From Eledone cirrhosa (Eukaryota), in contig OZ024743.1 of the NCBI GenBank assembly GCA_964016885.1, forward strand, positions 341,062,001-341,126,000: DNA of 64,000 nt. Direction: 5' to 3'. Position numbers and translations under genes: made by a program. Within the stretch, counting starts at the first letter, position 1, and every line of letters begins with the position of its first letter. The notes beneath the pieces were generated by a model, which did no database searches, had not been told where the DNA came from, and saw only the letters and a program-made list of their open reading frames with translations. Shown here piece by piece: positions 5,530 through 53,443 of this stretch.

Positions 5530-5640
5530 GAATGCCATGGTTGACGGAGGCTCGGCTCTGTAAGGTATAGTAATTTTTAACCGCTATAACAATTGTAAAT
5601 TGTTTAAAACTTTAACCAAATTGTAGATAAAAACACCCTC
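5530..5640 (+). mobile_element. Isolated 5' head of a Tx1-type LINE
   Basis: Near-identical to 35026-35131, the start of the element there; cut off by (TAT)n and the next element. Confidence 0.85.
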
Positions 5641-7820: not shown

Positions 7821-10800
7821 ATGGCCGTACTTAGAATAGGCAGTATACATGTACGTGGCCTGTGGTCATCTTGGAAGCAGGGTCACCTGCTCAATGACCT
7901 CAGCTCACTAAACATAGATGTGGTGGTCATCAGCGAGACCAGAATCTCCGAAGCACGAGCCTTCGCACCGATCTTCGGCGGTTACGATGTATACGCATCT
8001 CCCAGCCGTCCAGGATCGGGGGGAGGGGTTGCCGTGCTTTTTCGGAGAGGCTTGGATCTCGCCATACGGGCCATCTTCCTGGACCCAGAAGGTAAGTCGG
8101 TGGTGCTGGACGTGACCGGCAGCGAAGGCAATGCTTTCAGGCTAGTAACCATCTACGCCTCAACAGGGGCAGGACGGCCAGATATCTTCAGACGTCTAGG
8201 GACCTTTCTCGGAACGTCCCGCTCTTTAGTGTTAGTAGGGAAACTGATAAGGCGAGTGTAGGTTGTACACAATTTAAAGTAGTCGACTACACGGACCACA
8301 AATTTGTGATATGTGAAGTTGATTTAGATAGAATACATAGGCAAGGGCTCGCCTACTGGAAGCTGAACGCGTCGTTCCCAGCGCGCAAAGGTTACAGAGA
8401 CCGGATTAGCGAATTAGTTAAGCGTGCATTGTCGCGCGCGATCGTCAACAGCAGGTGGTGGTTTACCCTGAAAAGGGCTATTAGAGTAGAATCGATAAGG
8501 TTTAGCAAAGGAGTAGTGATAGAGGAAAATAGAGTAGAGCGAGAGTTAGTTAGAAAGCTAGAAGGGGCGTTTAGGACAGGCATCGCAACCGACGTGCTTG
8601 CGGCGAGATTGGCACTCAACCAGTTCTTCCACGCAAAGCATGAAGGCTACGTTGTCAGAGCTAGAACGCGTGCTCTAAGTCACGAGGGGATGAAAGCCGT
8701 TCTATGGGCCCGTGTGGTGGAGGCGCGACGTGGCAACAAGTCCACAATTCGGTTTTTGCTTGATCAAAACGGGCGCATGTTGCTCGAAACCGAGCAGATG
8801 TGTGCGGCTGTTCAACAGCACTTTGCTCAATTGTTCGGGAGTGGCGGCGGGCCGGATCGGAGTATGGACTTCGGTGCATACCTCGACGGACTGTCGCGGC
8901 TCTCGACGACCGCAGCGCAGTGCTGCGAATAGCCGATAACAGCAGGTGATATACGGGGCGCGATGTCTGACTGCACGAGGGGTAAATCGCCAGGTTTGGA
9001 TGGTCTGCCATACGAGCTTTATGCGTATATGCCAGACTTGTTCGGCCACCTCTTGGCAGATGTCTACTGCAACTGGCAGCAGAAAGGGAGCATTCCCAGT
9101 TTTGTGAGCGGTGGCACTGCTGAGAAAAGATCCGAACAAGGTGGACGTTATAGACAAATTCAGACCCATAACTCTGCTCAACGCAGAGTTTAAGATTGTG
9201 GCGAAGGTGTTAGCAAAGATATTGACGCTTGTCGTCGGTGATCTGGTGCGAGAGGCGCATATATGCGCCATCTCGGACAGATCCATCCACGACAACCTCC
9301 ATCACTGCAATACATCATAGGGTGGTTAAGGAAGCTGGCACGGGTGGGGCCCTGATCAACTTGGATCAATCTAAAGCATTTCATAGGGTCGACCATTGGT
9401 ACCTGGTTGCGGTCATCGAGGCGGCCGGTTTCGGGCCCGTTTTTAGGGGCTGGATCGCTGCGTTGCACAGTGACATCTGTTCGATTGTGAGGGTGAATGG
9501 TCACCTGTCGCAGCATTTCAGCACCATGCGCTCGGTCCGCCAGGGTCGCCTCCTCTCGTCCCCCATGTACGTACTGGCCATAGAGCCGTTACTACACAAA
9601 TTGGAGACGATGAGGGGGGGGGGGGGGGGTCCCACGCGAACTGGGATGCGGGGGATCTGTGTCAGCTTACGACGACGACGTCACCGCGGTGGTGTCGACC
9701 ACCAAACACGTCCAGATGCTCGGCACCGCTCTCAAGGAATACGAAGCGGTGACAAGATCAAAGATAAACCAGGAAAAGTCGGTGGGCTTGCAACTCCGCA
9801 CCTGGAGAGGCAAGTCAATGCCCGCCTACCGCGACGTGGGGCGCTGGACGGAAGGACCGGTTAAATTGCGCGGGGTCTGGTTCGGTCCGGACCTCCAGAT
9901 GGAGAAAAACTGGAGCGAGGTGACGAACAGGGTGGCCTCTCTCACCCAGAAATGGGCCAAGAGGAGGCTGTCTCTGAAAGGTCGGGCGGAAGTGGCGAAT
10001 GCGTACATAGCGTCCGTCATCTGCTACAGCCTGACCGTCGTACCTTGCCCCCGCCCAACTCTGACCAAAATGGAGCGCCTTCTCTTCCGCTTTTTGTGGA
10101 AGGGACGTGCTCCCATGGTCAGACGATCCATTTGCTGTCAACACCCGTTGCGTGGAGGACTAGGCATGTCGTGGCTGATGATGCGCAAACATGCGCTGAG
10201 GCTGCGACATCTCTGGTGTTTCCTTGACGGTGAACAGGTGTGGTCACCGTTTGCCAGACGCGCTTTTCCCCAGCTCGTCTCCTTGACGGAGCTGCAGTCC
10301 TGGATCAGAAAAAGGCCGAGGGATAGCGCTTGGAAGCTGGAATGTCTCCAAACTCTCACCGCTCCATACCGGTTAGGCACTAATATCGGTGGAACATCCA
10401 CCTCGGCGTTCTATAGAGGGCTAGTGGAGGGAAAGAGCGACGAAGTTCTCGGAGAGACCCTGGGCGTCGAAGACGATCAGCTGTTCGCTCTCTTCAAGAG
10501 AACTTTCAGACCGGGGCTTATGGACAACTTCCCGAAATCCCTGGCCTGGCAGTGCTACCGGGGAGCGTTTCCGGTTCCGGATAAGCTCTACAGGCACGGA
10601 GGCGCAGGGCGACGAAACCGTCCTGCGCGCACTCGTTCACTGCCCGAGGATTGCTGACTTGTGGAGCTGTATCGAACAACTGCTGTCGCGTGTAGGACGG
10701 ATCCGGTTATCAACTGAGTCCATTGTGCAGATAGCCCCGTCATCCTCCTTTAAAGAGGAGGAAGGGCAGGCAGTTTCCATCTGCCTGGTGGCCATGGCGA

Positions 10801-11009
10801 AAGAGATTGTGTGGTGAACAAGATTGAAAGGGTTGAAGACGGACACTTTCTCCTCCGGCCAATCCCTGATTAACTTTTTGAAGTTTCACTTGAAGAGGAA
10901 AATCAGGGCGGAGAGCCAAGTGCTGTCTTCTAGTAAGTTTGTTGAAAGGTGGGTGAAAATGGTGAGTCTGGTCCGAGTGAACGGGCCCGCTCTGAGTATA
11001 CGCCTGTAG
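7821..11009 (+). pseudogene. LINE ORF2 (APE endonuclease plus reverse transcriptase), with frameshifts and a deletion in the APE domain
   Basis: IGSIHVRGL, ISETR, KSPGLDG, FRPITLLN, DQSKAF, SVRQG and SAYDDD motifs. Confidence 0.92.
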
Positions 11010-11292
11010 ACTGAGGAGTGGGAAAAGTGAGAGAAAGCGCTTGCCATGGTGGTCAGGGTGGCCGTGGTCTTTTGTTTGGTTTTTACCACGAGTGACCCTC
11101 GGAGGTTTCCCCCTTTCGTTTGAATTTTTGTTGGTTGAATTTTTTTTGGATTTCTAACCCGATTTTGTTATAACCTGTTTACACGACCAAAACCCACTTA
11201 GTATCGTCCTGTACTATTCTGTGCCGTCTCTAATATTTTTCTTCGTGTCATCCCTTCTGGCCAATAAAGAAACCATTATTATTATTATTATT

Positions 11293-11346
11293 ACCAGTAA
11301 TACATTGGAATAATTGCTGGCCTTGTGCCAAAAGAAGAAACAATTA
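11293..11346 (+). mobile_element. 3' fragment of the tRNA-SINE lodged in the (ATT)n between two LINEs
   Basis: accagtaat...ctggccttgtgccaaaagaagaaacaattat matches the SINE 3' end seen elsewhere in the window. Confidence 0.85.
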
Positions 11347-11571
11347 TCATTATTATTATTATTATTGGTCTAATCGGACGTATTTTGCTCCCTCCCAGTA
11401 AGTCGCTTTATTTGCCTTTTAAAATTATTTGTTGTTAATTATTTCTTGTTGTGTAAGGGATATAAGCCCTTAGACTTTGCCCTGTGAAGGGGAAAGTATA
11501 ATATTTGGGCCTTTTGGCCCAAATATTTGAACTTTTTTTACATTTTAAAAAAATTACGGAGAAAAAAAAGT

Positions 11572-13540
11572 ATGGCTGTGTCACCCACACACACCAGCGA
11601 TATGTCTGCTGTCGTGCGACAACGACGTAGAATTTGAGAGGAGCGCTACGGCGAAATTAACACAAATTGATAACAGAAACACCACCTCAAACAATGTAAA
11701 CAAAGACACCAATGATACCAAAGAGAACTCTAATTTTGAAAAAATGACACTAACAGGGACAACGAAAATACAGATAACAAAAACAAAATGACAAATGCAA
11801 CAACAATATCAACACCACTAACATGAAAACAAATAGCGACAACACCAACAGCAACAATACCAACTGCACCGAGAACAACGGTGGCAACAAAGACAACAAT
11901 GATAACAGCGCCAGTGATAACAACAACACCAACAAGAACAACGACAACGACAACAACACCCCCAACGAAAACAAGAACACTTTCGCTGCGGCAGCAGCAA
12001 AAAAGAGGCCATGCTTCAACATGGACCTCTCAAACAAAGATGAAAAGTTGGCCCAGGCATGGAAGCTCATCAAGCAAGAGCAAACCTGGGCCAACTTAAC
12101 TGTCCCGGTAGAAGCTATTGAGGCAGTGGAGCGCAGAACGGTGCATTATAGATGCATCTCAGCACAAACCAAAAGGGCAGTTTTAATCCCACAAGCAGAT
12201 GTCGAAGTCGCGCTGAGGTGCATCAGGGAAGACACGGAATACATAGCGAGGGGCAGACAATAGGGCACCATTTCGGTGTTGTTCAAGTCAGAAGCCCTCG
12301 CTATGACTCCTTGCAAAACCAGCAAGGTCATAATGTACCCCTCCCACATGGGAAAAAGAACGTCTCCGCATTCCCAGAATCCCACCAGTACTTGACATGT
12401 GGTAGCTTCTGGGATGTGTGATTGTGGAGGGGATGGATACCGTCCCTATAGAAGTGACCAGAACGACCAGAGAGGACTGGTCCGGGGTTGGCCTGGAGAT
12501 CCTTCTCCAGATCAGGCCGGAGAATGTGAAGACAATCCCGGACCACATCCGCCTTCAGAATGGGACAGTCATTCACATTATGACCGAAGGCAAAAGGCCG
12601 CATTGTTTTGTTTGTGGGCAAAAAACCCATTTGCGAGCCTTCTGCCCTCAGCTGTTGAAAGAGGCAAAGGGTCGAAAGGCTCCACTGCTGCCGACGCCGG
12701 GAGGACCACAACCAACACCAGCACCGGAAAAACCACCAACAGCAACACCAATAGAAAGACCACCACCAACATTGACCACCCAGGGGGGAAACGAGGAAAG
12801 CTGTCAAATCCCCCCCCCCCCAAAAAAAATACACACACCAATAAAACCATAAACATACACACAGACACACTTACAGACACAGACCCCTCATATACCAGTA
12901 GTGAAGATGAGGGAAAACCCAAATCCCCCGAAATACAAAAAAAAAACGAAACACAAAAAGAAAAAAAAACTCAACAAAGCACAAAATCACCCACAATAAA
13001 AAACGCAGACAACACCCACGCAAACATCTCTCCAATAACACCAACATTAACACCACCATCACCATCACAGAATCCCCCAAACGCAAACAACCTAAACAAA
13101 CGAAAGAACAAATATACACACAAACATCTGAAACCACAGACACCGCACTCACAACAAACACAGACACAACCGAAACACCACCACCAAAACCATCACTACC
13201 ACAGCCACGCAAACAAATAAAATCCCACCAACAAAACATACAAAACTTCGTGCTCGTCATGAGGGCCAACAAGGAACTGATTGCCCTCGTAGCACGAAGT
13301 GAAAATATACAAAAAGAGGAGGAAATTTTTAAATCGAGCACATTTCTCGTGCCGGAAGATCTGGTTCTGGTGCGAATGTCGCTCGATTTATACAAATAAA
13401 TACGAGACAGCTTTCTTCGGGACGTGGGAACCCCGAACGTAAAACCCACTTCAAGACTTTTAAAGGGGTTCCCAAAAGAAACCCCACCAACTATGGAGGT
13501 CAAACAACCCGACCTTCACAAGAGCCCGGAAGGTAAGTAA
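11572..13540 (+). pseudogene. LINE ORF1 with CCHC zinc knuckle, interrupted
   Basis: TFAAAA and CFVCGQKTHLRAFC motifs; ends at gaa ggt aag taa. The start position is approximate. Confidence 0.75.
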
Positions 13541-13570
13541 ACCTTTCCTCTCTCTTTTTAACCTGCCAAC

Positions 13571-16500
13571 ATGGCCGTATTAAGAGTAGGATGTTTAAAT
13601 GTTCGAGGCCTGGGATCGTCCTGGAAGCAGGGTCACCTGCTCAACGACCTCATGTCTCTAGAAATGGATGTAATTGCCGTCAATGAGACCAGGATTTCCG
13701 ACACGCGCGCACTAACCCCCCATTTTCGATGACTATCAGATCTTTGCATCTGTTAGTCGGCCGGGAAGGGGAGGCGGGGTGGCAGTGCTGTTTAGGAAAG
13801 GCCTGGATCTCGAGGTAAGGTCGATCTTCCGGGACCCGGACGGGAAGTTGGTAGTCTTGGACGTGAACAATAACGAAGGTGGTGCCTTTACTGTTAGCGG
13901 GGGACTGGAACGGCATCTTAGACGCACGCTGGGACTGTATGGGAGTATCCGATAGGAGCGGGGGGTGCGAAAGTTTCAAGAACCTGATCAGCCAGTTCCA
14001 ACTGGCTGACAGGTACCGACTAGATTTCCCTAATGCGCCAGTGTGGACCTGGACTACCCGCATAGGGTCATCTAGATCGTATATAGACAGGATATTCATT
14101 AGGAAAATAGACAAAAATAGTGTAAGCTGTCCACGTTTTGAAACGGTTGCCTATTCAGATCACAAGTTTGTGATCTGTATGGTCGACCTAGATAAGACGC
14201 GTAGGTTAGGACCTGGCTACTGGAAGCTAAACATGTCATTTCCGGCACGTAAGGCTTACATGGACCAGGTCAACAATTTAGTTAAGAAAAGGTTGACAAG
14301 GGGAGTCGTCAACAATAGATGGTGGGGGGCTCTCAAAAGAGAGATTAGAGCAATCTCGATAGCGTTTAGCAAAGAAGTAGCGTTAGAGTAAAAAAAGAAA
14401 GGAGGGGGAGTTGGTAGATAAGTTAGACGAGGCTATTGGTAGTGGCATTGCAACTGATGTTCTAGCGGCGAGAATGGCATTATACCATTTCTTCAATACG
14501 AAACACGAAGTTAGCATTGTCAGAGCTAAGGCGCGTGCTCTGAGAAACGAGGGAACCAAAGCTATTCGATGGGCCCGCGTGGCAGAGGCGCAGCGTGTTA
14601 ATAAAACCACGATTCGGTCTTTGACGGACCGAGGCGGACACGAGCTGAGCGATTTCAAGCGGATGTGTGAGGCCTTTCGCCAACATTTTGCTTGGTTGTT
14701 CGGGGGAAATAGCGGGTCAGAGATGGTGGCGGACTTCAGTCCCTACCTCGATAGCTTGCCGCAACTCTCGACGGCTGACGCTAGGCGCTGCGAAAGGCCA
14801 ATTACTTATGCCGAGATTCAGGATGCCCTTTTCGGCTGCATGAGGCGCAAGTAACCCGGTTTGGATGATCTACCCTACGAGCTTTACGAAAATATGCCAG
14901 ACTTGTTCTCCAATCTCCTCGAAGCCCTCTACTGCAACTGGCAGCAAAACGGGAGTATTCCCAGGTCTGTGAGCCGGGGCGTAGTGACGCTGATAAGGAA
15001 AGACGAGAACAAGAGTGACACATTAGACAAGTTCAGGCCCATAACTCTGCTCAACACAGAGTTTAAGATTTTGGCCAGGGTGTTAGCGAAGAGGTTGGCG
15101 CTTGTCGTCGGGGATTTGGTTGGGGAGGCGCAAACTTGCGCAATCCCAACCAGGTCCATACACGACAACCTCCACCTAATGCGAGACATCATAGAGAGGG
15201 TAGGGTGTAAACCTGGCTTCGGTGGGGCTCTGATCAACTTATATCAATCGAAAGCATTCGATAGGGTCGACCATCGGTACCTGGAGGCTGTCCTCAAGGC
15301 GGCTGGCTTCGGCTCCGTCTTCAGGAGCTGGATCGCTGCAATGCACAGTGGCACCTGCTCGATGGTCAAAATTAATGGCCACCACTCACAACCGTTTCGA
15401 GTCTTCCGATCGGTCCGTCAAGGGTGCCCTCTCTCATCCCCTCTGTACGTATTGACTCTCGAGCCTTTACTGCGGAAGCTGGAGCTGTTGCAGGGCATCC
15501 CGCTCGAACTGCGACGCGGAAACGCTGTGTCGGCTTATGCGGACGACATCACAGTCCTGGTGTCGGACACCTCAGAAATCGAGGTGGTCGGCAACTTATT
15601 GGAGGCATATGAAAGGTTGACGGGAGCAAAACTTAACCCGGAAAAGTCGGTGGGCTTGCAACTCGGCACCTGGAGAGGCAAGTCCATGCCGTCCAACAGC
15701 GTCGTGGGGCGTTGGACGGACGGACCGGTAAAGTTGCTCGGGGTTTGGTTCGAGCCAGACCTCCAGGTGGATAAGAATTGGGACGAGGTGACGGGCAGGG
15801 TAGCCAGTCTCACCCAGAAATGGGCTGGGATGAAGCTATCACTGAAAGGTCGGGCGGAGATGGCGAACGCGTACATCGCGTCCGTCATCTACTACCGTCT
15901 GACCGTCGTCACTTGCCCCCGTTCGTGCCTCGCCATCTTGGAGCGGCTCCTCTTCAAATTCTTGTGGAGGGGTCATGTTCAGTTGGTGAGGCGGTCCATC
16001 TGCCGCCAGCACCCTCTACGTGGAGGGCTGGGCATGCCGTGGCTAATGATGCGCATGCACGCGCTGAGGCCACGGCATCTCCAGATATTCTGCCTAAACG
16101 GTGAACAGGTGTGGTCGCCGTTTATCAGACAGGCCTTTCCGCAGCTCGTTTCTTTGACTGAGCTGCAGTCCTGGGTCAAGAAGTGACCGAGACTGGGTGA
16201 CTGGCATCTGGAATGTTGCCAGGCACTCACTGCCCTCTACCAGGTGGGCAATGCGGTCAGTGGAACTTCCACTCTCGAGTTCTATAGAGGATTTGAGGTG
16301 GGAAAGTGCGAAGACGCACTCGGAGAGGCTCTGGGAGTCAACGATGTCGAACTAAGCAGTCTGTACTGGAGGACTTTCGAGCCGGGGACGATGGATAATT
16401 TCCAAAAATCCCTCGCTTGGCAGTGCTACTGGGGGGCACTGCCGGTTCGAGATAAACTCTACAGGCACGGAAGTGCTGTCAGACGGACCTGCCCGAGATG

Positions 16501-24135: not shown

Positions 24136-24661
24136 GTATATATGTATATATATATATATGTAAGTATATATGTATATATATATATATGTATGTATATATG
24201 TATATATATGTATGTATATATGTATATATATATATGTATGTATGTATATATGTATATATATATATGTATGTATGTATATATATATATATATATATCAGGG
24301 TTGCAGGTGTTATATCAGAGTTTTCCTTCTCCTAGAATGATGTTGACTTGTTCTTCTTTTTGGTAAATATCATCTTGGTTAAGAGAGTGGGACTGGCTTT
24401 GTGCAGTGCCTTTGCTCACTATAAAAGCTTCACGGCACAGGCATTGCTTTATATCTGGAGATCTCTCTGCACTTGTCGTCACATGGTACCATGGGCCCAG
24501 CACTATGTGTCAATAATTGTCACAAGTGTAGTGTTTGTTACAGAGTTTTCAAGTCGCTGGCTGGACTAAAAAGTCACACCCGTTCGGCGCATCGGTAGGG
24601 GTTCTCCTATATGGATATAAAGTAGTGGCCGTACTCGAAAACGAGTTGGCAGCCACCATAT

Positions 24662-24693
<32 letters not shown>

Positions 24694-24877
24694 GTATATA
24701 AATATATATATATATATATATGTATGTAATATATATATATATGTATGTATATATATGTATATATATATATGTATGTATATATATGTATATATATATATGT
24801 ATGTATATATATATATATATATATGTATGTATATATATATGTGTATATATATATATATATGTATGTATATATATATG

Positions 24878-24912
<35 letters not shown>

Positions 24913-24939
24913 ATATATATATGTATGTATATATATATG

Positions 24940-24985
<46 letters not shown>

Positions 24986-24991
24986 TGTATG

Positions 24992-25022
<31 letters not shown>

Positions 25023-25031
25023 ATATGTATG

Positions 25032-25064
<33 letters not shown>

Positions 25065-25095
25065 ATATGTATGTATATATATATATATATATATG

Positions 25096-25186
<91 letters not shown>

Positions 25187-25197
25187 ACATATATATG

Positions 25198-25290
<93 letters not shown>

Positions 25291-25326
25291 ACATATATAT
25301 GTATGTATATATATATATATATATAT
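23870..25326. repeat. Long compound (TA)n/(TATG)n microsatellite interrupted by one retroelement
   Basis: Directly visible; source of the many YIYIYI ORFs. Confidence 0.97.
24294..24659 (+). mobile_element. Non-autonomous RTE-like element, 5'-truncated with an inverted 5' segment
   Basis: 24336-24659 matches the 3' half of the 56113-56723 element; 24294-24338 is the adjacent upstream part in reverse orientation. Confidence 0.88.
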
Positions 25327-25746
25327 GAAATATAAGAATCAAAGAACTGTTCAAAACATTATTATGTTTACCTACCTAAGTGCCTCCACTACACGTATCT
25401 CTCTGCCACACTATATAAACAAGACGCACGTGCTTGCCACACATATAACATTTGCACTATATAACCGCTTATCTTCATCTTGTATTTTAACCTGTATTTT
25501 TGATTTTTGATTGTACCTTTTAATATGAATGTAATCTCGAAGTGTGTACTGCCACTCTAAATTCTGTAATGAATGTTGACCCACAATATTTGCATATGTA
25601 TCGGTATGTCTCTTGGCTGAAAAGGAGGTCATATAACTGTCCATTCATTAATAAATTGCTCCGAAGAATCCAAACCTCGGTTTGGAGGAAACAGCTGTAA
25701 GCACAATAATGTTTTGAACAGTTCTTTGATTCTTATATTTCATATA
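25322..25746 (+). mobile_element. Penelope-like non-autonomous unit with ~42-bp terminal inverted repeats and a hammerhead
   Basis: tatatgaaatataagaatcaaagaactgttcaaaacattatt at the left end is the reverse complement of 25705-25746. Confidence 0.75.
25657..25703 (+). ncRNA. Minimal hammerhead with variant core CCGAAGA
   Basis: tgct-CCGAAGA-atccaaacc(tc)ggtttggag-GAAA-cagctg-TA-agca. Confidence 0.7.
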
Positions 25747-25956
25747 ACTGCTCTGTAAATCATCTGATGTTTTTACATCGAGCTACTTAACTTACTGGTA
25801 ATAAGGTAGTAATACATTACTGCCTACCACTATTTAGGGTTTGTATAAAAAATACATATAACTGCATAAGGTTTCTGTATTTACATAACCATAAATAGTA
25901 TAATTAATACTATATATATATATATGTATACATATATATATATGTATGTATATATG

Positions 25957-25989
<33 letters not shown>

Positions 25990-26592
25990 GTATGTATATA
26001 TATATGACAAACTCACTGACACACCCATACACACACATATGTATAGAGATAGATAGGTAGGTAGATAGATAGATAAATAGATATGTAGATAGACGTATGT
26101 TAACGTATGTATATATGAGTGTATGCAAATAAACAATAGATCATCTGTTATATTTCAGGTTTTACCAGTGCACAGATGTAAAGAAGAAATAAAAGACCAT
26201 TGTTGTGTTTCCGGAGATTTAGAAATAGCAGTAAGTCTTTCTATTTCATATTTTGTTTAAAACCTATCCACAATTTTACTAATGACTTTACTAATGACTC
26301 CTTAAGGTTTCACATGTGGATAACTTCTGTTCTACCACCTGCACAGATCAATTCAAGCAGATTTCAAATAGTATTTTGTAAGGCTCACTAAAGGCTTTAC
26401 CATGAAGCTGACTGACATAATGCATATGATATAAGACTGCTCCACCTACAGGGATGTGCAGCTGAATTCTATACGATAGTAGTCTATAATAAACATCTTC
26501 GTTATATACAGTTTTTGTGTGATAATGTCGTAAATATCGTATATTATAAGTTAACACGATATATATATATACAGGTATTAGTATATATATAT

Positions 26593-26644
<52 letters not shown>

Positions 26645-26800
26645 TTAAGGATACTATTTATGGTTATGTATATAATAAAACCTTTTATGGTTATATATTT
26701 TGTATATACAAACCCCAAATAGTGGGTCAATATATGCATATGTTTTTATAAGTCTCTTGTGTTGAAAAGGAGGTCAAGTATGTTATAGATCACTAAATAG

Positions 26801-26849
26801 TTGCTCCGAAGAAATCAAACCTCGGTTTGGAGGAAACAATTGTAAGCAA
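26801..26849 (+). ncRNA. Minimal hammerhead with variant core CCGAAGA (second copy)
   Basis: ttgct-CCGAAGA-aatcaaacc(tc)ggtttggag-GAAA-caattg-TA-agcaa. Confidence 0.7.
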
Positions 26850-26880
26850 ATAAATGATTTAAACTGAACTTTGGTTATTG

Positions 26881-27016
<136 letters not shown>

Positions 27017-27186
27017 ATATATATACTAATACCTATATATATATATATATATATTGTGTTAACTTGTAATATACGATATTTACGACATTATCACACAAAT
27101 ACTGCATATAACGAAAGATGTTTATTATAGACTACTATCGTATAGAATTCAGCTGCACATCCCTGTAGGCGGAACATTCTCATATC

Positions 27187-27227
<41 letters not shown>

Positions 27228-27233
27228 TATTAG

Positions 27234-27295
<62 letters not shown>

Positions 27296-27356
27296 CATAT
27301 ACATATATACACACATACATATATATATATAAACACGCACAAACACAAACACACAC

Positions 27357-27454
<98 letters not shown>

Positions 27455-27737
27455 TATCAAGACCTGATTGGTTCTTTCGTTGTTTTCGTTTCATGTGGTT
27501 GGGCTCACCTGTCGCAGTTGTCAATTTGTCAAGCTATCTAACATATGTTATTACTCTAAGGTGACACAACCTTATCGAGTGCTTTGATGCACATTCCTAA
27601 TTGTATATCGTTAGCGTGGCCACAACCAAAACCTCGATTTTACTAAACTTCCATTTGTATATATATAATATATACAAATAAAAGGCATATTGATAGCCTG
27701 TAATTAACAAGCTCAAAGTATAAATACTGAGCATTAT

Positions 27738-27915
27738 GGATTGGCAGTATCGGTAGAGGGTCGGATGCCATGCTTTCCAGCATAGTTATGTCCCTTTACG
27801 ATCTGAGTTCAAATCCCGCCGAGGTTGACTTTGCCTTTCATCCTTACGGGGTCGATAAAATAAAGTACCAGTAATGCACTGGATAATTGCTGGCCTTGTG
27901 CCTAAAGTAGAAACA
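27738..27915 (+). mobile_element. tRNA-SINE family 1
   Basis: Same core and tail as 17171; lacks the first few bases. Confidence 0.9.
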
Positions 27916-28053
27916 ATTATATAATAATATATGTAGTAATAAACACAGTAAATCGTGTAAAACGGGGGTTGAAATAGCACGTTGGTTTGACAAAGTTAAC
28001 CTGAAGCAAACGAAAATACAGAAAATAGATTGACTGTCTCAATAACTATTACA

Positions 28054-28388: not shown

Positions 28389-28573
28389 GCGGTGGATTGG
28401 CAGTATCGGTATAGAGGGTGGGACGCCATGCTATCCAGCATAGTTACGTCCCTTTACGGTCTGAGTTCAAATCCCGCCGAGGTTGACTTTGGCTTTCATC
28501 CTTACGGGGTCGATAAAATAAAGTACCAGTAATGCACTGGATAATTGCTGGCCTTGTGCTAAAAGAAGAAACA
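28389..28573 (+). mobile_element. Full-length tRNA-SINE family 1 with ~21-bp TSD
   Basis: attatataataatatatgaag occurs at 28368-28388 and 28574-28594. Confidence 0.92.
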
Positions 28574-28671
28574 ATTATATAATAATATATGAAGTAATAA
28601 ACACAGTAAATTGACTTCTGGCGCACGAGGTGAAATGTTCATTCGTGTGGCTGTGTCACATTTAATCTAAT

Positions 28672-33502: not shown

Positions 33503-33702
33503 TTAGGGTAATTAATATCAACAAGGAAGGCCTGCAAATGTGTGTCAGAGTAATTATTGAGTTAAAATTATCAACAAACGCGGAATCTCCAAGGGACCAG
33601 CTTGTAGTTGTTGTTGTTGTTGTCGTCGTCGTCATTATTGTTGCCGTTGCTGTTGTTGTTGTTGCTGTTGTTGTTGTTGTTGTTCTTCTTCTTCTATTGT
33701 TG

Positions 33703-34976
33703 TATCGCGGCCGTCATCTACTACCGCCTGACCGTCGTACCTTGTCCTAAGCCCCGCCTGACTGCGCTGGAGCGTTTGCTCTTTCGCTTTTTGTGGAAGG
33801 GACGCACTCCGATGGTCAAACGGTCCATCTGCTGTCAACACCCGCTACGTGGAGGGCTGGGCATGCCGTGGCTGATGATGCGCAAACACGCGCTCAGGCT
33901 ACGACATCTCCACCTCTTCCTCTACGGTGATCAGGTGTGGTCGCCGTTTGCTAGACACGTCTTTCCCCAGATCGTCTCCTTGACGGAGCTGCAGTCCTGG
34001 GTCAAGCGAAGACCGAGAGGGAGCGCTTGGAGACTGGAATGTCTTCAGGCGCTCACAGCCCTCGACCAATCGGGCAATATGATCGGTGGAAACTCCACCT
34101 TGGCGTTCTATAGAGGATTAGTGGAGGGAAAGAGCGACGACGTACTTGGAGAAACTCTAGGCGTCGACGAAAATCAGCTAGCCAATCTCTTCGGAAGGAC
34201 TTTCGGGCCGGGGCCTATGAACAATTTCCAGAAATCTCTGGCCTGGCAGTGCTACCGAGGAGCTTTGCCAGTTCGGGATAAACTCTACAGGCATGGAGGT
34301 GCCGTCAGCCGGGCACGTCCGAGATGCGCGCAGGGCGACGAAACCGTCCTTCACTCACTCGTCCAGTGTCCGAGCATTCCTGACTTGTGGGTTTATGTCG
34401 AACACCTGCTGTCACGTGTAGGACGGATCCAGCTATCAGCTGAGTCCATCGTGAGGATGCCCCGCCCCCTTCCTTTAGCCGGGAAGGGCAGGCAGATTTT
34501 ATCTGTCTGGTGGCCATGGCGAAAGAGATAGTATGGTGGACACGTTTGAAAGGGCTGAAGACGAGCACTTACCTCTTCAGTGATGCCCTGATTAACTTTT
34601 TCAAATTTCATTTGAAAAGGAAAATGAGGGTAGAGAGGGAAGTGCTCTCTTCCCAGCATTTTGTTGAAAGATGGGTGAGAGAAGCAAGTATGGCCCGAGT
34701 GAATGGGCCTACCCTGAGTATGTGTCTGTAAATTAAAGGTGGAAAACTGGGGGAGGGCACTTGCCCTGGTGGTCCGGGTCACTGTGGCCTTTTAATGGGC
34801 TTTCTCCACAAATGTCCCTCCGAAGTCTCCCCCCTATTGGGGAATTTTTCATTGTTATTTTTTATTACATCCTCTGTTTGTTTTACACGCAGAAATGCCC
34901 ATTTGCACCGTCCTGTATTGTCCTGTACTGTTCTTAATGTCTAATTTATGTAAACCCTTGTGGTTAATAAAGAAAG

Positions 34977-34977
<1 letters not shown>
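33703..34977 (+). mobile_element. 5'-truncated Tx1-type LINE (3' end of ORF2, stop at 34731) with (ATT)n tail
   Basis: Homologous to 10005-11009 and 15873-16894; preceded by (GTT)n. Confidence 0.92.
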
Positions 34978-35025
<48 letters not shown>

Positions 35026-35205
35026 GAATGCCATGCTTGACGGAGGCTCGGCTCTGTAAGGTATAGTAATTTTTAACCGCTATAACAATTGTAAATTGTT
35101 TAAAACTTTAACCAAATTGTAGATAAAAACACTCTCCTCCTCGTGAGAGGGGTCTTTCTGCCCATTATTTGGCCCTTCCGGGTTAAATAACCTCTTATTG
35201 GGGTT

Positions 35206-36528
35206 TTGTGCCCAATATTCATTTTAACCCAAAAAAACATGGCTACAAAAAGGAATTTTCACAAGTCACTCCCACTCATTCCGTCTTCTACTACCTCAAT
35301 CATCACTACATCAGACAGAACATTGTCTCTCTCAATCCATTCTATAAATGTGTCTTTCTCACTCCCTTCTCTTTACTGCGGGCCAAACATTGTGAGGGTC
35401 AAACTGACCCACGTCCACCCCTGGATGGCCCCTTCTTGGCTGGCCGCGTCTGTCCTCGTCGGAATCGAGGACAAAACAACTGTACTGCAAGTACAGAAAA
35501 AAGTACGAGAAGATTGGGTCGGCACCTCCATTGAGATGTTAATCCAAATCAACCAGGAGTGCATCGAAGCTATCCCGGATGTGATAGACTTCGATAACGG
35601 CACTCAACTGCCCATAAGTGTTGAGGGCAAACGCTCGAAATGCTTTCTCTGTGGATCGAAGACTCAACTCAGGGCCTTCTGCAATGAGAAGACCCTGAGA
35701 AAGGAGAAAATTCCCCTCCTTCCGAAACCGGCTCCACTGCTACCAGCAACAGGACAGGTGGCAACCAAGAAGGATAGGTCCATGGCACCCATACCCACGC
35801 CACGGAAATCAAGAACCGCAGCAGCAGTGGAAGTATTAACAACAACAAGAGTAATACCAACTGCAGCTGCAACAGAGACTCCACTGCAAACATCACTAAC
35901 AACAACAAGTGAAATAGTGGAGCTGGTACCCCTGCCCGACCTTACACAATCGGACATAGAGTGTGAGGTGGGAGAGGGATGGCAAAAGGTCGCAAGAAGG
36001 TACAAACGCAGAAGCAGCGCATCGTCGCCTTCGAAAAGGGAGGAAAGAAATGAAAAAAGGGTAAAGAGACTTACAGCAAAGAGACTTGCAGCAAAGAGAA
36101 TTACAGCAGCAACACCACCAACACCATCACCACCCACACCGGCACCACCATCACCGCCGGCGGCAACCCTACCGCAAACAACAACAACACCTTCAACACC
36201 ACCACCGCAAGCACCAACATCGCAAATACAACAACAAAACACACACACCCAGCAACAACGACAAGAAAATAGCAGAACCACACCCCAACCCCAGAAAAAC
36301 AAATGCGCAGCAATAAATACACACAACAAGAAACTAATGACTTACATAATTGAACACACAGACATTTCACAGCACGACTACATAATACCAGCACCAACCA
36401 AAACACCAACGAACATAAGACTGGTAAGAATAGCACAGCAACAATACACAAACATTAAAACGAAATTCCTCAACGCAGTTGGTGAGTTCAGAGACCTAGG
36501 AGGGACACTCAATCAGAGAGTATATTAG
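35206..36528 (+). pseudogene. LINE ORF1 remnant (440-codon open frame, mutated knuckle CFLCGSKTQLRAFC)
   Basis: From YCGPNIVRVK onward it aligns with ORF1 at about 6658-6940; the N-terminal region appears deleted or replaced. Confidence 0.75.
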
Positions 36529-36678
36529 GATATATTCACAGAAGAGCCGACGACCAGCCGAAGGGACGATTCAACGGTCCCTTCACCAGACGATCAAATG
36601 AAAAGGATGGAGAAACCATCTTTCCTCTACGAGAAGTAAGGTAAGTGGTCTTTCCCATCTATTACACTCCATTTCAAC

Positions 36679-38576
36679 ATGACCTCACTCAGAATAGGCA
36701 GCATAAATGCGCGTGGCTTGGGTTCGTCATGGAAGCAGGGCCACCTGCTCAACGACCTCAGGTCACTAAACATACATGTAGTGGCCATCAGCGAGACCAG
36801 ACTCTCCGAAGCACGGGCCTTCGCACCGATCTTCGGCGGCTACGATGTGTACGCATCTCCCAGCCGTCCTGGATCGGGGGGGGGGGGAATTGCTGTGCTT
36901 TTTTATGGATCTCGCCATACGGGCCATCTTCCTGAACCCAGAAGGTAAGTTGGTGGTGCTAGACGTGACCAGCGGAGACACGCAAACTTTCAGGCTAGTG
37001 GCCGTCTATGCCTCGACAGGAGCAGGGTGTCCTGATTTCTTCCTGCGTCTGGAGACCTTTCTTGGAACGTCCCGCTCTTTAGTGTTAGTGGGCGACTGGA
37101 ACGGGATCTTAGATGCACGCTGGGACTGTGTGGGATTAGCGGATAGGGGAGGAGGGTGCAAGAGCCTCACCAACCTGCTCAGGCGTTTTGAACTGTCTGA
37201 CAGGTACCGATTGGATTTCCCGAATGTGCCAATGTGGACTTGGACAAACCGCATAGGGTCATCCAGATCATATCTCGATAGAGTATTTTGTAGGGAAATA
37301 GATAGGTCTAGCATAGGCTGTCCACAATTCAAGATAGTCAGCTACACGGACCAGAAATTCGTGATCTGTGTGCTTGACTTAGATAGGCTTCATAGACGAG
37401 GATCCGGCTACTGGAAGCTAAACGCGTCCTTACCAGCGCACAAGGCCTACAGAGACCGGATTAGCGAACTAGTTAAGCGGGCTTTGACGGGGGCCATCGT
37501 CAGCAACAAGTGGTGTTTTGCTCAGAAAAGAGCGATTAGAATAGAGTCCATTAGGTTTAGTAAGGCTTTAGCAATAGAGAAAAATAGAGCAGAGGGAGAA
37601 CTAGTTAGAAAATTAGACGAGGCGCTTAGCAAAGGCATCGTGACCGACGTACTTGCGGCGAAATTGGCCCTTGACCAATTCTTCAATGCAAAGCACGAAG
37701 GCTGCGTTGTCAGAGCTAGGGTGTGTGCTCTCAGACACGAGAGGACGAAAGCCGTTCAATGGGCCCGAGTGGCGGAGGCGCGTCGTGGCAACAAAGCCAC
37801 GATCCGGTCTTTGGTGGACCACGACGGGCGCATGCTACTCGATCCCGGGCAAATGTGTGAAGCTTTTCAGCGACACTTCGCTCAGCTGTTCGGGGGCAGC
37901 GCGGACCGGATCTAGGGATGGACTTTAGTGTCTACCTCGACAGACGGCCACGGCTCTCGGCCACTGAGGCGGAGTGTTGCGAAAATCCTATAACAGCCGC
38001 TGAGGTACGGGAGGCAATGGCTGGCTGTACAAGGGGTAAATCGCCTGGTTTGGATGGTCTGCCCAATGAACTTTACGTACAGATGCCAGACTTGTTCGGA
38101 GACCTCTTGGCGGACGTCTACTGCAACTGCCAACAGAACGGGAGAATTCCCAGCTCTGTGAGCCGAGAAGCGGTGGAGGTGGTGAGAAAGGCTCCGAACA
38201 AGAGGGATAACATAGATAATTTCGGGCCCATAACTCTGCTAAACACAGAGTTCAAGATTTTGGGCAAGGTGCTAGCAAAGAGGTTGGCGCTTGTCGTTGG
38301 TGGTCTGATGGGAGAGGCGCAGACATGCGCCATTTCCGACAGATCTATCTACGACAACCTCCACCTCATGCGATACATCGTAGAGAGGGTAGCTAGAGAA
38401 CCTGGCACGGGTGGGTCCTTGATCAATTTAGATCACTCGAAAGCTTTCGATAGGCTTGACCATCTTTACCTAGCGGCAGTCCTGAGGGCGGCTGGCTTTG
38501 GGCCCGTCTTCAGAGGCTGGATCGCTGCCATGCACAGCGACATCTGCTCTGTGGTGAGATTGAACGGTCACCTTGA
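36679..38576 (+). pseudogene. LINE ORF2: APE domain plus N-terminal half of the RT
   Basis: INARGL, ISETR, VGDWN, SYLDRVF, KSPGLDG and DHSKAFD motifs. Confidence 0.9.
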
Positions 38577-40333
38577 CATATATATGCTGTCTTCAGCAGA
38601 CAGCATGTATATGTGAAAGTATGTATATTTCCTCTGATAATTTGTAATATTTTTACATAGATCTATATGATATACATACCAACACACATATACATCCTAG
38701 AAACGATCGTAAAATGATGATTTTTTAAATATAAGGAACTTATTCTCTGTTTTCATTTCATTGTTTTTGTTAATTTAACTTGATTCTGTTTTCCTATGAT
38801 TTTCATCGACAATTTTTGAATGCATCTTCTATTGTCATGATATTTGGATTACATTGAGTTCTTCATACGGATTGGACACTACCGTATATTTTGGTAGAGT
38901 TATCTACACCCCCCCCCACATATATATATATATATATATATAATTAGAATTGTATACTTATATATATATTGTCTGGTGCGTTTTTCTATAAAACTATTTA
39001 ATGCAGATCGACATTGCTGACTTATTTTTATGTCTTAGTTAGGGTAGTAAATGCAGTGGGTACAAGAACTTCAGGGGCATTAGACAGGTAGGAGGAAATC
39101 GAAAAAGTATCAAGGGCGTCTGTTTTACCGTTGCTTAGCTCAAAGTCAAATTTCATTGTACTGATTTGGATTCAATGTATTCTAAAGATGGGATGCCCCA
39201 TCTTGTTCAGTAATATATCATTTCCGTATTTAAGCTGATATGGTATGACATAAGGTAGGTTTGTTTGCTATTTGAAGCAGAGAGAGAGAGCAGCAATATT
39301 TAGGGATAACGTGTTGCTGTAGTTAGAAAGAATGGAAAGAAAAGATGCCGATAGTCAGATCGGGTAAATGAAACTGTTTCCTCTGGATGTAAGCGGGATT
39401 TAAATTTAGAATGCAGAGTACAAACAAATTTTGCAAATCATTCATTCGGACAATATAACAATTCCTTCTATCCGCGGTCTCTTGAATAGTACTTTATTTA
39501 TCGACTCCCAAATAATGAAAGCTAGGTTGATCACTATGGGATTTGTATTCACAACGTATAGTCCGAGAACAAGTACAACGTCATTTAGACCGACGCTCAA
39601 ATATCCGTCAGTTTCAGCGCTATGTAGCAGGAAACAGATATTCAAAATGTCGGAGATCTGTTCCGAATACATGAAAAAGGAATACATTACTGACGGCATC
39701 CAAGTGTCAGGCAGTGCTGGTTACTAGAACGCGAGATTAAGACTATTACGCAAGATATTCTTTAGTTCATACCATGGCTCTCACCAAAATATCCACTACG
39801 CAATTTCACTGAAAATGCTTTGTTTGTCCAGAATCTATTAAAGAAATGATTAGTCCATGTGCCACGCTGTAGGATCGAATCCTAAACCACGTAAGTGCCA
39901 AGAGAATGTCTTAACCTTGCTCTTACGCTTACACACACATAAGGCACATAAATGATCTTAAATAAATCTCCTTAAATGGTTGGTCTTCAAATACAGCTGT
40001 GACTGCATAAAGAGAATAATTACATCGATTTGAACTTAAACAGTAATTACTACACAGAAGAAAAATATATCTACAATTTTCCAACATATTTTTTTGCCAA
40101 TCTCAAAATAATTATTAATTTAAATGCAGAAAACAAAAATTACCCTATTAGTTTGCGAGAACATATCAATTTTTTCCACCTTATCTCTCACTATGTACGC
40201 CCCCCGCTCACTCCCCCTCTTTCTATTTTCTATCTATTTGGATATCTCCTCTTCTGTTTTATTTGCTTCAATACGTGTATGTGTGTGTGTATATATATAT
40301 ATTTTGCTGTCCTTGTGCTAAAAGTAGAAATAA

Positions 40334-51427: not shown

Positions 51428-52132
51428 ATGTATATATATATATATATATATACATACATACATACATACATACATACATACATACATACATACATACAAT
51501 GGCGACCGTTGTGGTCAGTGTCCGATAATTGGACGTGTGTAATTACGGCTTACATGAAGGCAACATACCATATATTGGAAAAAGTTGAGCTACATTACGC
51601 GGTAAGATTACATACAATAATTCTACATAAGTGTTTGAACTGTAAGTGTGTTGTAAAACACCTATTTATATGAACGATACATACACTTATGATATATGAA
51701 CGATACATACACTTTAACATATAAATGCAACGTTGTTATATTACATTTATAAAGAAATATAAAAGTAACGTTTTCGATTCAGAAACAAAAATATAAGTGT
51801 TTGAACTGTGAATGTTGTGAATATGTTGTAGAACACCTATTTATATGAATGATACATAAACTTTAACATATAAATACAGCATTGTTATATTATATTACAT
51901 TCGTAAAGGAATATACTAAGTAACGGTTCTTTTTGTTCTCGATTCAAACGATTCAAGAACAACGTTTAAAACACAGTTGTAGAATTAAAAACTAACTGAA
52001 AAGAAATATTACCCAAGCTGTGAATAACTTTAAATTTGATTCTGACAGAACTTTGTCGTAACTTTTAAAGAAGATCATCGACTATTTAAAAAAAAAATAA
52101 ATACAAAATATTAGTGAATAGACGAACTCATC

Positions 52133-53443
52133 ATGGCAAAAAGTACAAGTCTCCTTCGACCAAATCGCAATTACAACCGTTGTATACAGTGGAGCTACGA
52201 GCTTAACAAAGAATTATATGAAGCATACAAACAATCTGAACCCCAAAAGTTCGGTTTTATGCAAAGGCTAAAAACTTTATGGAACTCCAAACACCCAGAA
52301 TTAGACTTTTCTCCAAAGCATCTAAATGAACAGGCAAAACGTATCATTAGATGTAAATTGATACATCTAACGGAATCGAGTGATACTACAAATACAGCCC
52401 TTGTAGACAACCACCCCACCTCCACTGACAGACAAAGAGAATGGCCGGCTAAATCTAACAGTGAACAGCTCACCAACAATTTTGCTGAAATCCATCCCAC
52501 TTCCACTGAAGAACAGCGAGAAAGGTCAGCTGACTCTAGTAGTAATTGTCACCACATCAACAACGAGGCTGCAATTCATGACTCTACTGAACAAACAGAG
52601 CACCAAAAACTTGTGGGCACCCTACAAGTGATATGGAACGATATGTTTCAAGAGATACACAGCCTTAATGTGAGTGACAGACCATACAACACTAGAGTCA
52701 GTAAAGAACCCACTAAATTGGAATTGGAAGCGGTGAACGAAATAGCTGGCAATTATCTGAAGGCTATACGATCTAAAGGTGTAGAAACGACATTTGAAAC
52801 GCTCAATGTTTTGTTATATGTTTCAGCTGTGACATTGCTATCATATAACACACATCTAAAACCACGCAATCAAGATACAAACAGAAAGCCTGAACCAGCG
52901 TGGATGCGAAATTTAAAAACCAAAATTTTGTCCCTGAGACGAAGTATCTCACACATCGCAGTCGTTATGAAATGCAACATAGAGAGAAACTTCACACGAC
53001 ACCAGGAAGACCTAAAGAAAAAGTTAGAGAGACGATTTGGAGATACCAAATTTAAAACTTTGAACTCCAAATTACACCAGTTGAAACAACAACTCACAGC
53101 TACAACAGAAAGACTAAAATATAAGTCAACAGCCCATAAACGACAAGTGCTAAATAGATTGTTTGCCAGAGATCCTAAATCAGTTTATCGCAGCTTCGGT
53201 GGCAAAAGCTCAATCCCTGTAAACGACACCCCTTCAAAAGAACAGGTTGAGAACTACTGGAGATCTGTATGGGAAACGGATGACGGATTCAACAGACAAG
53301 CTAATTGGCTAAAACAACTGGAACAGGACTACTGCCAACATGTCCAGACAAAACAATATGACATAGATGGGTCAATACAGCTCTACAGAAAATGTCGAAT
53401 AGGAAATCGCCAGGCCCAGACCTCATTACAGGATACTGGTTGA
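52133..53443 (+). CDS. N-terminal part of the R4/Dong polyprotein (frameshift near 53370-53400)
   Basis: WSYELNKELYEAYKQSEP...RLKTLWN is homologous to WTKELNRTVMQCYLKSNP...RMHNIWN at 4509-4919; also EPAW, NRLF and YWRSVWE. Confidence 0.85.
   Translation: MAKSTSLLRPNRNYNRCIQWSYELNKELYEAYKQSEPQKFGFMQRLKTLWNSKHPELDFSPKHLNEQAKRIIRCKLIHLTESSDTTNTALVDNHPTSTDRQREWPAKSNSEQLTNNFAEIHPTSTEEQRERSADSSSNCHHINNEAAIHDSTEQTEHQKLVGTLQVIWNDMFQEIHSLNVSDRPYNTRVSKEPTKLELEAVNEIAGNYLKAIRSKGVETTFETLNVLLYVSAVTLLSYNTHLKPRNQDTNRKPEPAWMRNLKTKILSLRRSISHIAVVMKCNIERNFTRHQEDLKKKLERRFGDTKFKTLNSKLHQLKQQLTATTERLKYKSTAHKRQVLNRLFARDPKSVYRSFGGKSSIPVNDTPSKEQVENYWRSVWETDDGFNRQANWLKQLEQDYCQHVQTKQYDIDGSIQLYRKCRIGNRQAQTSLQDTG

Follow-up and report, generated by a model that had tools for sequence, protein, structure and literature searches.

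Minimal hammerheads of Penelope-like retrotransposons (PLEs) have been described as cleaving poorly even with U4 (PMC4209133), and a model in which they act as dimers has been proposed for them (PMC4209133; PMC6765202). The core variant described among these min-HHRs is U3-A8 (Cervera and de la Pena 2014, PMC4209133). The hammerhead of Poseidon-Ac, a PLE of the green anole, is reported to cleave only with the element's protein, while in vitro the element inserted without this cleavage and the site was not an end point of any RNA read (Frangieh et al. 2024, PMC11167929). For the Hydra clade of PLEs, a canonical hammerhead was stated to be universal (PMC8557442), and the Hydra hammerheads of File S2 of that work all carry CTGA (Craig et al. 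2021, PMC8557442).

The U4C change itself is already known in viroids and viroid-like RNAs. It lowers in vitro activity yet permits viroid infectivity (PMC3088659), had no effect on PLMVd cleavage and was found in four CtaHVd-LR1 variants (PMC9608096); a mutational scan reports low activity after single changes in CUGA (PMC9901934). ZV1 and bvdl786 each have one CCGA ribozyme, and both strands of each cleaved in vitro (bioRxiv 10.64898/2026.09.16.752053). As these sources describe it, the same core change occurs in a PLMVd variant, CtaHVd-LR1 variants, ZV1 and betaviroid-like RNAs, that is, in circular RNA replicons whose hammerheads are monomeric (type III in ZV1 and bvdl786), and only as a variant or on one strand (PMC9608096; bioRxiv preprint cited above). 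Unlike these cases, the change considered below affects a type I motif of the dimer type, and more than 5,600 copies in the genome carry it as a fixed state.

The window, a 64-kb stretch of the 3.0-Gb genome of Eledone cirrhosa, contains two hammerhead motifs on the plus strand. A sequence-only reading had described both as minimal hammerheads with a self-complementary stem III and with C at core position 4. Re-reading of the sequence confirmed its coordinates and both of these points, C4 being located at 25662 and 26807; the stem III forms counted genome-wide (see below) bear the former point out as well. The features are as follows; those of the hammerheads were read from the sequence.

24658..25326, (TA)n-type microsatellite left of insertion A, the target repeat (repeat analysis)
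25322..25363, minus strand, inverted arm of insertion A, 42 nt, covering the element between 5 nt past the predicted cut and the short 3' end
25365..25913, plus strand, forward arm of insertion A, a 5'-truncated PLE comprising part of the 3' UTR/pLTR (blastn to full-length L084 and L001-L030)
25657..25703, plus strand, hammerhead copy 1, subfamily A
25657-25660/25700-25703, plus strand, copy 1 stem I, TGCT/AGCA
25661-25667, plus strand, copy 1 core CCGAAGA, with C4 at 25662
25669-25675/25680-25686, plus strand, copy 1 stem II, 7 bp
A25668 and G25687, plus strand, copy 1 unpaired bases bordering stem II
25688-25690, plus strand, copy 1 GAA
25691-25698, plus strand, copy 1 stem III palindrome ACAGCTGT
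A25699, plus strand, copy 1 N17, predicted cut after 25699
25911..26005, (TA)n-type microsatellite right of insertion A (repeat analysis)
26559..26641, (TA)n-type microsatellite left of insertion B (repeat analysis)
26642..26724, minus strand, inverted arm of insertion B, long 3' end of the element (blastn against L033)
26722..26888, plus strand, forward arm of insertion B, 167 nt, to the short 3' end (blastn, 3' end classes)
26801..26849, plus strand, hammerhead copy 2, subfamily B
26806-26812, plus strand, copy 2 core, with C4 at 26807
26814-26815, plus strand, copy 2 damaged stem II base (sequence compared with the family form)
26836-26843, plus strand, copy 2 stem III palindrome ACAATTGT
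A26844, plus strand, copy 2 N17, predicted cut after 26844
26884..27450, (TC)n then (TA)n microsatellite right of insertion B (repeat analysis)

Read from the sequence and aligned, copies 1 and 2 are genuine minimal hammerheads of type I layout, with three helices around the core and the ends in stem I. C3-G8, G5, A6, A9, G12, A13, A14, A15.1-U16.1 and H17 are all present in both, whereas the canonical U4 of the CUGA turn is replaced by C, and stem III is possible solely between two copies, not inside one. The canonical G10.1-C11.1 pair closing stem II is also missing from both motifs because an unpaired base lies on either side of this stem; across copies, the bases opposed at that place are A·G, C·A, C·C, C·U or U·U. 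Compared with the PLE min-HHRs as described in PMC4209133, our motifs share the type I form, the long stem II and short stem I, the extra base after A9, the palindromic 15.2-16.2 region and the proposed dimer action; they differ in that C4 replaces U4, the G10.1-C11.1 pair is missing and G12 is preceded by a second unpaired base. The Hydra-clade hammerheads of PMC8557442 resemble them in that stem III has 4 bp and hardly any loop, if any, and in that stem II is often bordered by unpaired bases, one per side; the U·U facing at the stem II base that is common there is also found among the copies here. The stem II base of copy 2 shows two changes (TC to AT) relative to the commonest family B form, which was found in 25 of 38 CAATTG segments; the AT form was found in two, both being the window's own copy. 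No Rfam hammerhead model scored above its gathering threshold across the whole 64-kb window, and none was found at E up to 10 within 25500-27000. The motif is not a chance one, since the C4 core combined with the stem II pattern has 5,612 genomic matches and the reversed control none.

A 141-base stretch around copy 1 was 100% identical at 40 of 40 scored places out of 1,271 candidates (the window being one of the places), and the stretch around copy 2 showed 98% identity at at least 39 other places, with 1,777 candidates. Between the two stretches, similarity is only about 77%; therefore, copies 1 and 2 belong to two young subfamilies, A and B. Each insertion consists of two arms in opposite directions, one leading to a short 3' end (about +47) and the other to a long one (about +214); the forward arm of insertion A stops at the element's long 3' end, about 214 nt past the cut site. 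The same two endings prevail elsewhere, with copies terminating about 47 nt (23/35) or about 214 nt (10/35) past the cut. Opposite arms with different 3' ends suggest that both start sites were used in one event. Each window motif lies in a 5'-truncated insertion of its own, from one of two sister subfamilies of a Hydra-clade PLE.

The earlier reading went further and supposed a dimer between tandem repeats, with the window copies cleaving each other. Indeed, they lie on the same strand, 1.15 kb apart, and have an identical core. However, they belong to different subfamilies, arrived in separate insertions, each with its own inverted arm and microsatellites, and no known transcript spans both; the stem II base of copy 2 is damaged, and their stem III heteroduplex, with a C·A mismatch, is predicted at -2.2 kcal/mol, hence a poor dimer. 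We consider this supposition highly improbable: the window copies are by-products without an ORF, not partners. Likewise, we rejected an identity with non-LTR retrozymes, described as head-to-tail, ORF-less hammerhead repeats of 150-450 bp (PMC7229834), given that the repeat analysis of the window found no tandem array across the motifs and that copies map to PLE ends.

In L081, L082, L083, L084, L311, L312, L313 and L318, the motif flanks one ORF on both sides, and the spacing between motifs is 4.17-4.26 kb in the full-length copies L081, L082, L083, L084 and L313. The ORF encodes 832 residues in L084 and L082. It begins some 250 nt past the cut site and stops about 1.4 kb short of the following motif; the 3' UTR is about 1.4 kb long. 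Its protein has the RT motif YRDD at 354 and, C-terminally, the GIY-YIG-type VIY...YVG at 697. The described marks of the Hydra clade are an RWK-type motif, DKT for DKG, a CxCX5C linker, and CxxC plus CxH in the endonuclease (PMC8557442, section 11); here, we found RVRWR at 36, ADKT at 122, CNCRANRTC at 678, CNLC at 776 and CQH at 804, matched by eye to File S4 and Fig. S7 of PMC8557442. Pfam gave no match above threshold for this protein, and thus the clade assignment stands on motifs. A homolog search returned 304 matches with 31-46% identity among the 120 listed, one of them from Argonauta hians; a metagenome scan with a single protein query gave no match, and the related metagenome loci used below came from an alignment-based scan. 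Compared by eye in this way, the protein motifs identify the element as a putative Hydra-clade Penelope-like retrotransposon.

The Hydra-clade trait of a (TA)n target is likewise present, both window insertions being (TA)n-flanked, so that protein motifs, (TA)n targets and inverted 5'-truncated arms are all shared with the elements of Craig et al. 2021. In contrast, all Hydra-clade rows of their File S2 have CTGA, including Hydra-1_oBim, a separate 2.5-kb family, while the lineage described here has CCGA and a 4.2-kb unit with its 3' UTR of about 1.4 kb (PMC8557442). With Poseidon-Ac as described by Frangieh et al. it shares the pLTR hammerhead, AT-rich targets and two downstream reverse-transcription starts giving two 3' ends; however, Poseidon-Ac belongs to another PLE clade, and its ORF starts inside the hammerhead (PMC11167929). 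We also discarded the possibility that an overlapping reading frame dictates C4, as the motif lies outside the ORF.

Genome-wide, CCGANGA was found at 5,612 places and CTGANGA at 70 with the same stem II (reversed controls 0). Thus, 98.8% of the copies have C4, which is fixed, and the family consensus is not CTGAAGA. G5A is a standard inactivating change of the core. We used its count of 80 copies genome-wide as a neutral control in place of a CpG argument; a special CpG effect was not supported, CpG and GpC sites being kept at similar rates between lineages. The comparison of 70 U4 with 80 G5A copies shows that U4 revertants are no commoner than a damaging change at the adjacent base, and the number of U4 copies fits neutral decay. 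The 20 U4 loci that we examined were spread across all subfamilies and formed no subfamily of their own.

To the older lineages we turned with a search that left out the main stem II and produced 114 matches, 100 of them listed. Among the matches listed, these lineages have other stems and loops, with N7 = U or G and N17 = C or U, and C4 was counted by eye in 33 of 35 older-lineage rows. One older element has 69% ORF identity to subfamily A, corresponding to 1.1-1.2 substitutions per fourfold site. Among the outgroup relatives, 63 of 78 metagenome loci possess a sense-strand hammerhead, and 63/63 of these have U4 (62 CTGANGA, 1 U3-A8). With U4 in the outgroups and C4 in the older lineages, C4 is therefore derived, old and lineage-wide. 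An antisense scan of the 78 related loci gave four matches, one of them CCGATGA (reversed control 0). A CCGATGA hammerhead-like motif with a weak stem I lies antisense to a related ORF at L277:2417-2466, minus strand, as a single copy on a metagenome contig. Other hammerhead families of the E. cirrhosa genome have canonical CTGANGA; they were seen near L013, L023, L024, L027, L028 and L085, and more of them near L118, L132, L149, L167 and L185.

Stem III was represented in the genome by CAATTG (3,319 copies), CAGCTG (2,110, i.e. 2,124 less 14), CAGTTG (781) and CAACTG (14), so that AU, GC or GU forms make up 99.8% of the 6,224 counted copies. The self-duplexes are predicted at -11.1 kcal/mol for GC, -6.4 for AU, -3.4 for GU and -1.0 for AC. 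A tree built from the ORFs of 12 natural copies, with its root on the old lineage, showed CAATTG as the ancestral form, followed by CAGTTG, with CAGCTG (subfamily A) nested within the latter. Taken together with the 781 G·U copies, this topology indicates the path CAATTG to CAGTTG to CAGCTG in two single steps. The double change from CAGCTG to CAATTG supposed from the window pair must thus be replaced by single steps in the reverse direction through a G·U subfamily. Variation is confined to one of the four stem III pairs and so records a single evolutionary path. Preservation of the palindrome, also claimed at first, holds for pairing in RNA but not strictly for the DNA, where the palindrome is imperfect in 12.6% of copies. 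The sequence-only reading had regarded common non-palindromic variants as evidence against its proposal, and, literally taken, these 12.6% of copies are such variants; they still pair in RNA, however, which supports dimer pairing at the RNA level.

In 19 natural copies across lineages, all core bases including C4 were invariant, although the search patterns had fixed most core bases; what varied was N7 (A/U/G), N17 (A/C), loop II and the two unpaired bases. N17 was U in a few older-lineage rows, and G at N17 was barred by the search patterns. Pairing was kept in 95.8% of cells, with three pairs changed on both sides, in these 19 copies, whose kinship inflates the test. Core and stems were thus conserved over about 1.2 substitutions per neutral site. 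Selection acts on the hammerhead structure as a whole; that C is preferred over U does not follow.

The base of stem II behaves differently on its two strands: changes of the closing U occur in 398 copies and changes of the A that it pairs with in 27, and insertions of 1-4 nt cluster at the 5' base (in the window, 25669 and 26814-26815). Most likely, this one-strand hot spot arises during transposition, and it may be where the PLE reverse transcriptase pauses or errs on folded RNA. The closing U is still the commonest base in the main subfamilies, which therefore points to selection on source elements. The 5' base of stem II often differs between the two motifs of one insertion (L311, L312, L313).

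The first reading of the window called the motif a selected natural U4C variant. One part of this claim stands, namely that U4 revertants are without advantage. As for the other part, a C found in any of six lineages was C in all of them at 11 of 60 fourfold sites, or at 11 of the 26 sites with C/T only; because that many neutral C sites remained unchanged, one unchanged site is compatible with C/U neutrality. A strong advantage of U4 is unlikely. Most simply, C4 is a tolerated change, fixed once in the lineage ancestor and costing the element nothing. One could instead imagine C4 itself being selected as a brake: U4 would cut too early, before protein binding or before reverse transcription had passed the site, and revertants would be purged. 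Such an explanation could draw on revertants arising as often as other transitions (the 70 U4 and 80 G5A copies) while the examined U4 loci stay scattered without their own subfamily, on C4 in 33 of 35 older-lineage rows (by eye, among the matches listed), and on nearly all copies having been reverse-transcribed through an intact site, with 291 failing a marker 51 nt upstream versus about 2,900 whole A/GT copies. Nevertheless, the neutral sites just mentioned imply that one fixed site proves little, and among related elements every sense-strand hammerhead functions with U4 (63/63). Hence, we regard a selected brake as unlikely.

On the whole, the window motifs are pseudo-LTR hammerheads of a PLE whose entire lineage has C4, and the motif probably retains a slow self-cleavage, acting as a homodimer within the element transcript. 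The full element would carry the same hammerhead at both ends of its 4.2-kb unit, and two motifs of one transcript, or of two transcripts, could swap their 8-nt palindromes and so build stem III. This exchange would form two active sites, with a slow cut after N17 that would probably be aided by the element's RT-endonuclease protein. In favour of this reading, N7 and N17 vary while the other core bases hold, the stem III forms keep pairing in RNA, CCGA hammerheads cut in vitro in ZV1 and bvdl786, the anole PLE hammerhead is reported to cleave with its protein, and 5' ends of the A/GT subfamilies peak at the predicted cut (see below). Against it stand two weakening features stacked in one motif, C4 and the missing G10.1-C11.1 pair, as well as the poor cleavage of PLE minimal hammerheads that do have U4, the findings on the anole element in vitro, and the low activity of CUGA mutants in the mutational scan. 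Folding predictions lend the active dimer weak support, as its value (-33.7) about equals that of the best alternative dimer (-34.3); as a monomer, copy 1 is predicted to prefer a non-hammerhead fold (-11.7) to the hammerhead (-8.9). In most copies, reverse transcription passed a site that was uncut or had been rejoined.

Cutting was examined indirectly, through where truncated copies have their 5' ends relative to the predicted cut. For the A/GT subfamilies (CAGCTG and CAGTTG), 68 matches were obtained, of which seven ending at the anchor and one internal duplication were dropped and 60 were tallied by eye. Twelve of these 60 5' ends fell exactly at the predicted cut, versus 3.4-3.7 expected from nulls that used AT-rich filler (P 1-3 x 10^-4); with microhomology cases and paired arms removed, about 9/52 remained (P 0.002-0.004), and a script check of the first 30 loci placed 6/30 at the cut. 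The peak did not replicate in the CAATTG subfamilies, where 5 of 76 ends fell at the cut against 4.75 expected (comparable span, among 100 of 141 matches listed) and the script check gave 1/30. Over a wider span, among 100 of 291 rows listed, about 5 ends lay at the cut, while six positions around loop II had about 18 in all; the latter clusters are of similar size, and the cut site is therefore not the sole cluster of 5' ends. Overall, the 5'-end signal at the cut is suggestive and limited to the young A/GT subfamilies. Head-to-head insertions in which both arms begin with the first base after the predicted cut were seen at G000:C4:75128897, C7:16447108, C10:25359107 and C13:32669695, their arms being separated by 2-7 A/T-rich bases. 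We rejected them as independent proof of cutting, as symmetric junctions occur elsewhere too.

It is tempting to combine these observations and to suppose that selection keeps C4 to slow a dimer ribozyme assisted by the protein, with those copies of the youngest subfamilies that start exactly at the cut site, some of them head-to-head pairs, being a genomic record of in vivo cutting by a PLE hammerhead in which cut RNA served as the template; we consider this combination rather unlikely. The failure of the 5'-end signal to replicate would also suit an element whose motif no longer cuts and whose fold is retained as a binding or priming signal for the element protein. The location of both reverse-transcription start sites just downstream (about +47 and +214) is compatible with such a role, as are the dispensability of cleavage in vitro reported for the anole PLE (PMC11167929) and the Naiad PLEs, which thrive without canonical hammerheads (PMC8557442). 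However, N7 and N17 vary exactly as catalysis allows (N17 being A, C or U, with G excluded by the patterns), the palindrome shifts only among pairing forms, and CCGA hammerheads cleave elsewhere. A motif kept purely as a signal thus seems to us quite unlikely, and slow homodimer cleavage in the element transcript remains the reading that we prefer.

What seems to be new here is a U4C change fixed in a large, active animal retrotransposon lineage, and a dimer-type PLE hammerhead with lineage-wide C4. We found no report of a fixed C4 core in a PLE lineage in the literature searched or in the portions of the PMC8557442 supplement covered; most subscription papers and Lunse et al. 2017, which may list core variants, lie outside this scope. 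For the role of hammerheads in PLEs, the sources consulted report poor cutting in vitro and dispensability in one reconstituted system (PMC4209133, PMC11167929). A young lineage with more than 5,600 copies, intact ORFs, stem III occurring naturally at three strengths (GC, AU, GU) and a fixed C4 lets cleavage rate, dimer strength and genomic 5'-end footprints be compared directly. If the C4 variant still cuts slowly in pairs, it offers a natural test of what hammerheads do for the element. It is also important to note that searches demanding CUGANGA would miss whole abundant PLE lineages; this affects reports of hammerhead-less PLE groups, in which the core was detected with 'cuganga' (PMC8557442).

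Finally, we would like to comment on the rest of the window. No host gene is evident in it, the long frames resembling, by eye, LINE-type fragments or microsatellite frames; those at 8096-16186, 33608-38616 and 52118-55635 resemble fragments of LINE-type retrotransposons. A repeat of about 200 bp has two window copies, at about 27735-27935 and 28390-28585, and recurs in many of the examined loci. Insertion B is bracketed by a 133-bp inverted duplication (26426-26558 and 27056-27188), whose halves are 94% alike and which occurs nowhere else in the genome.
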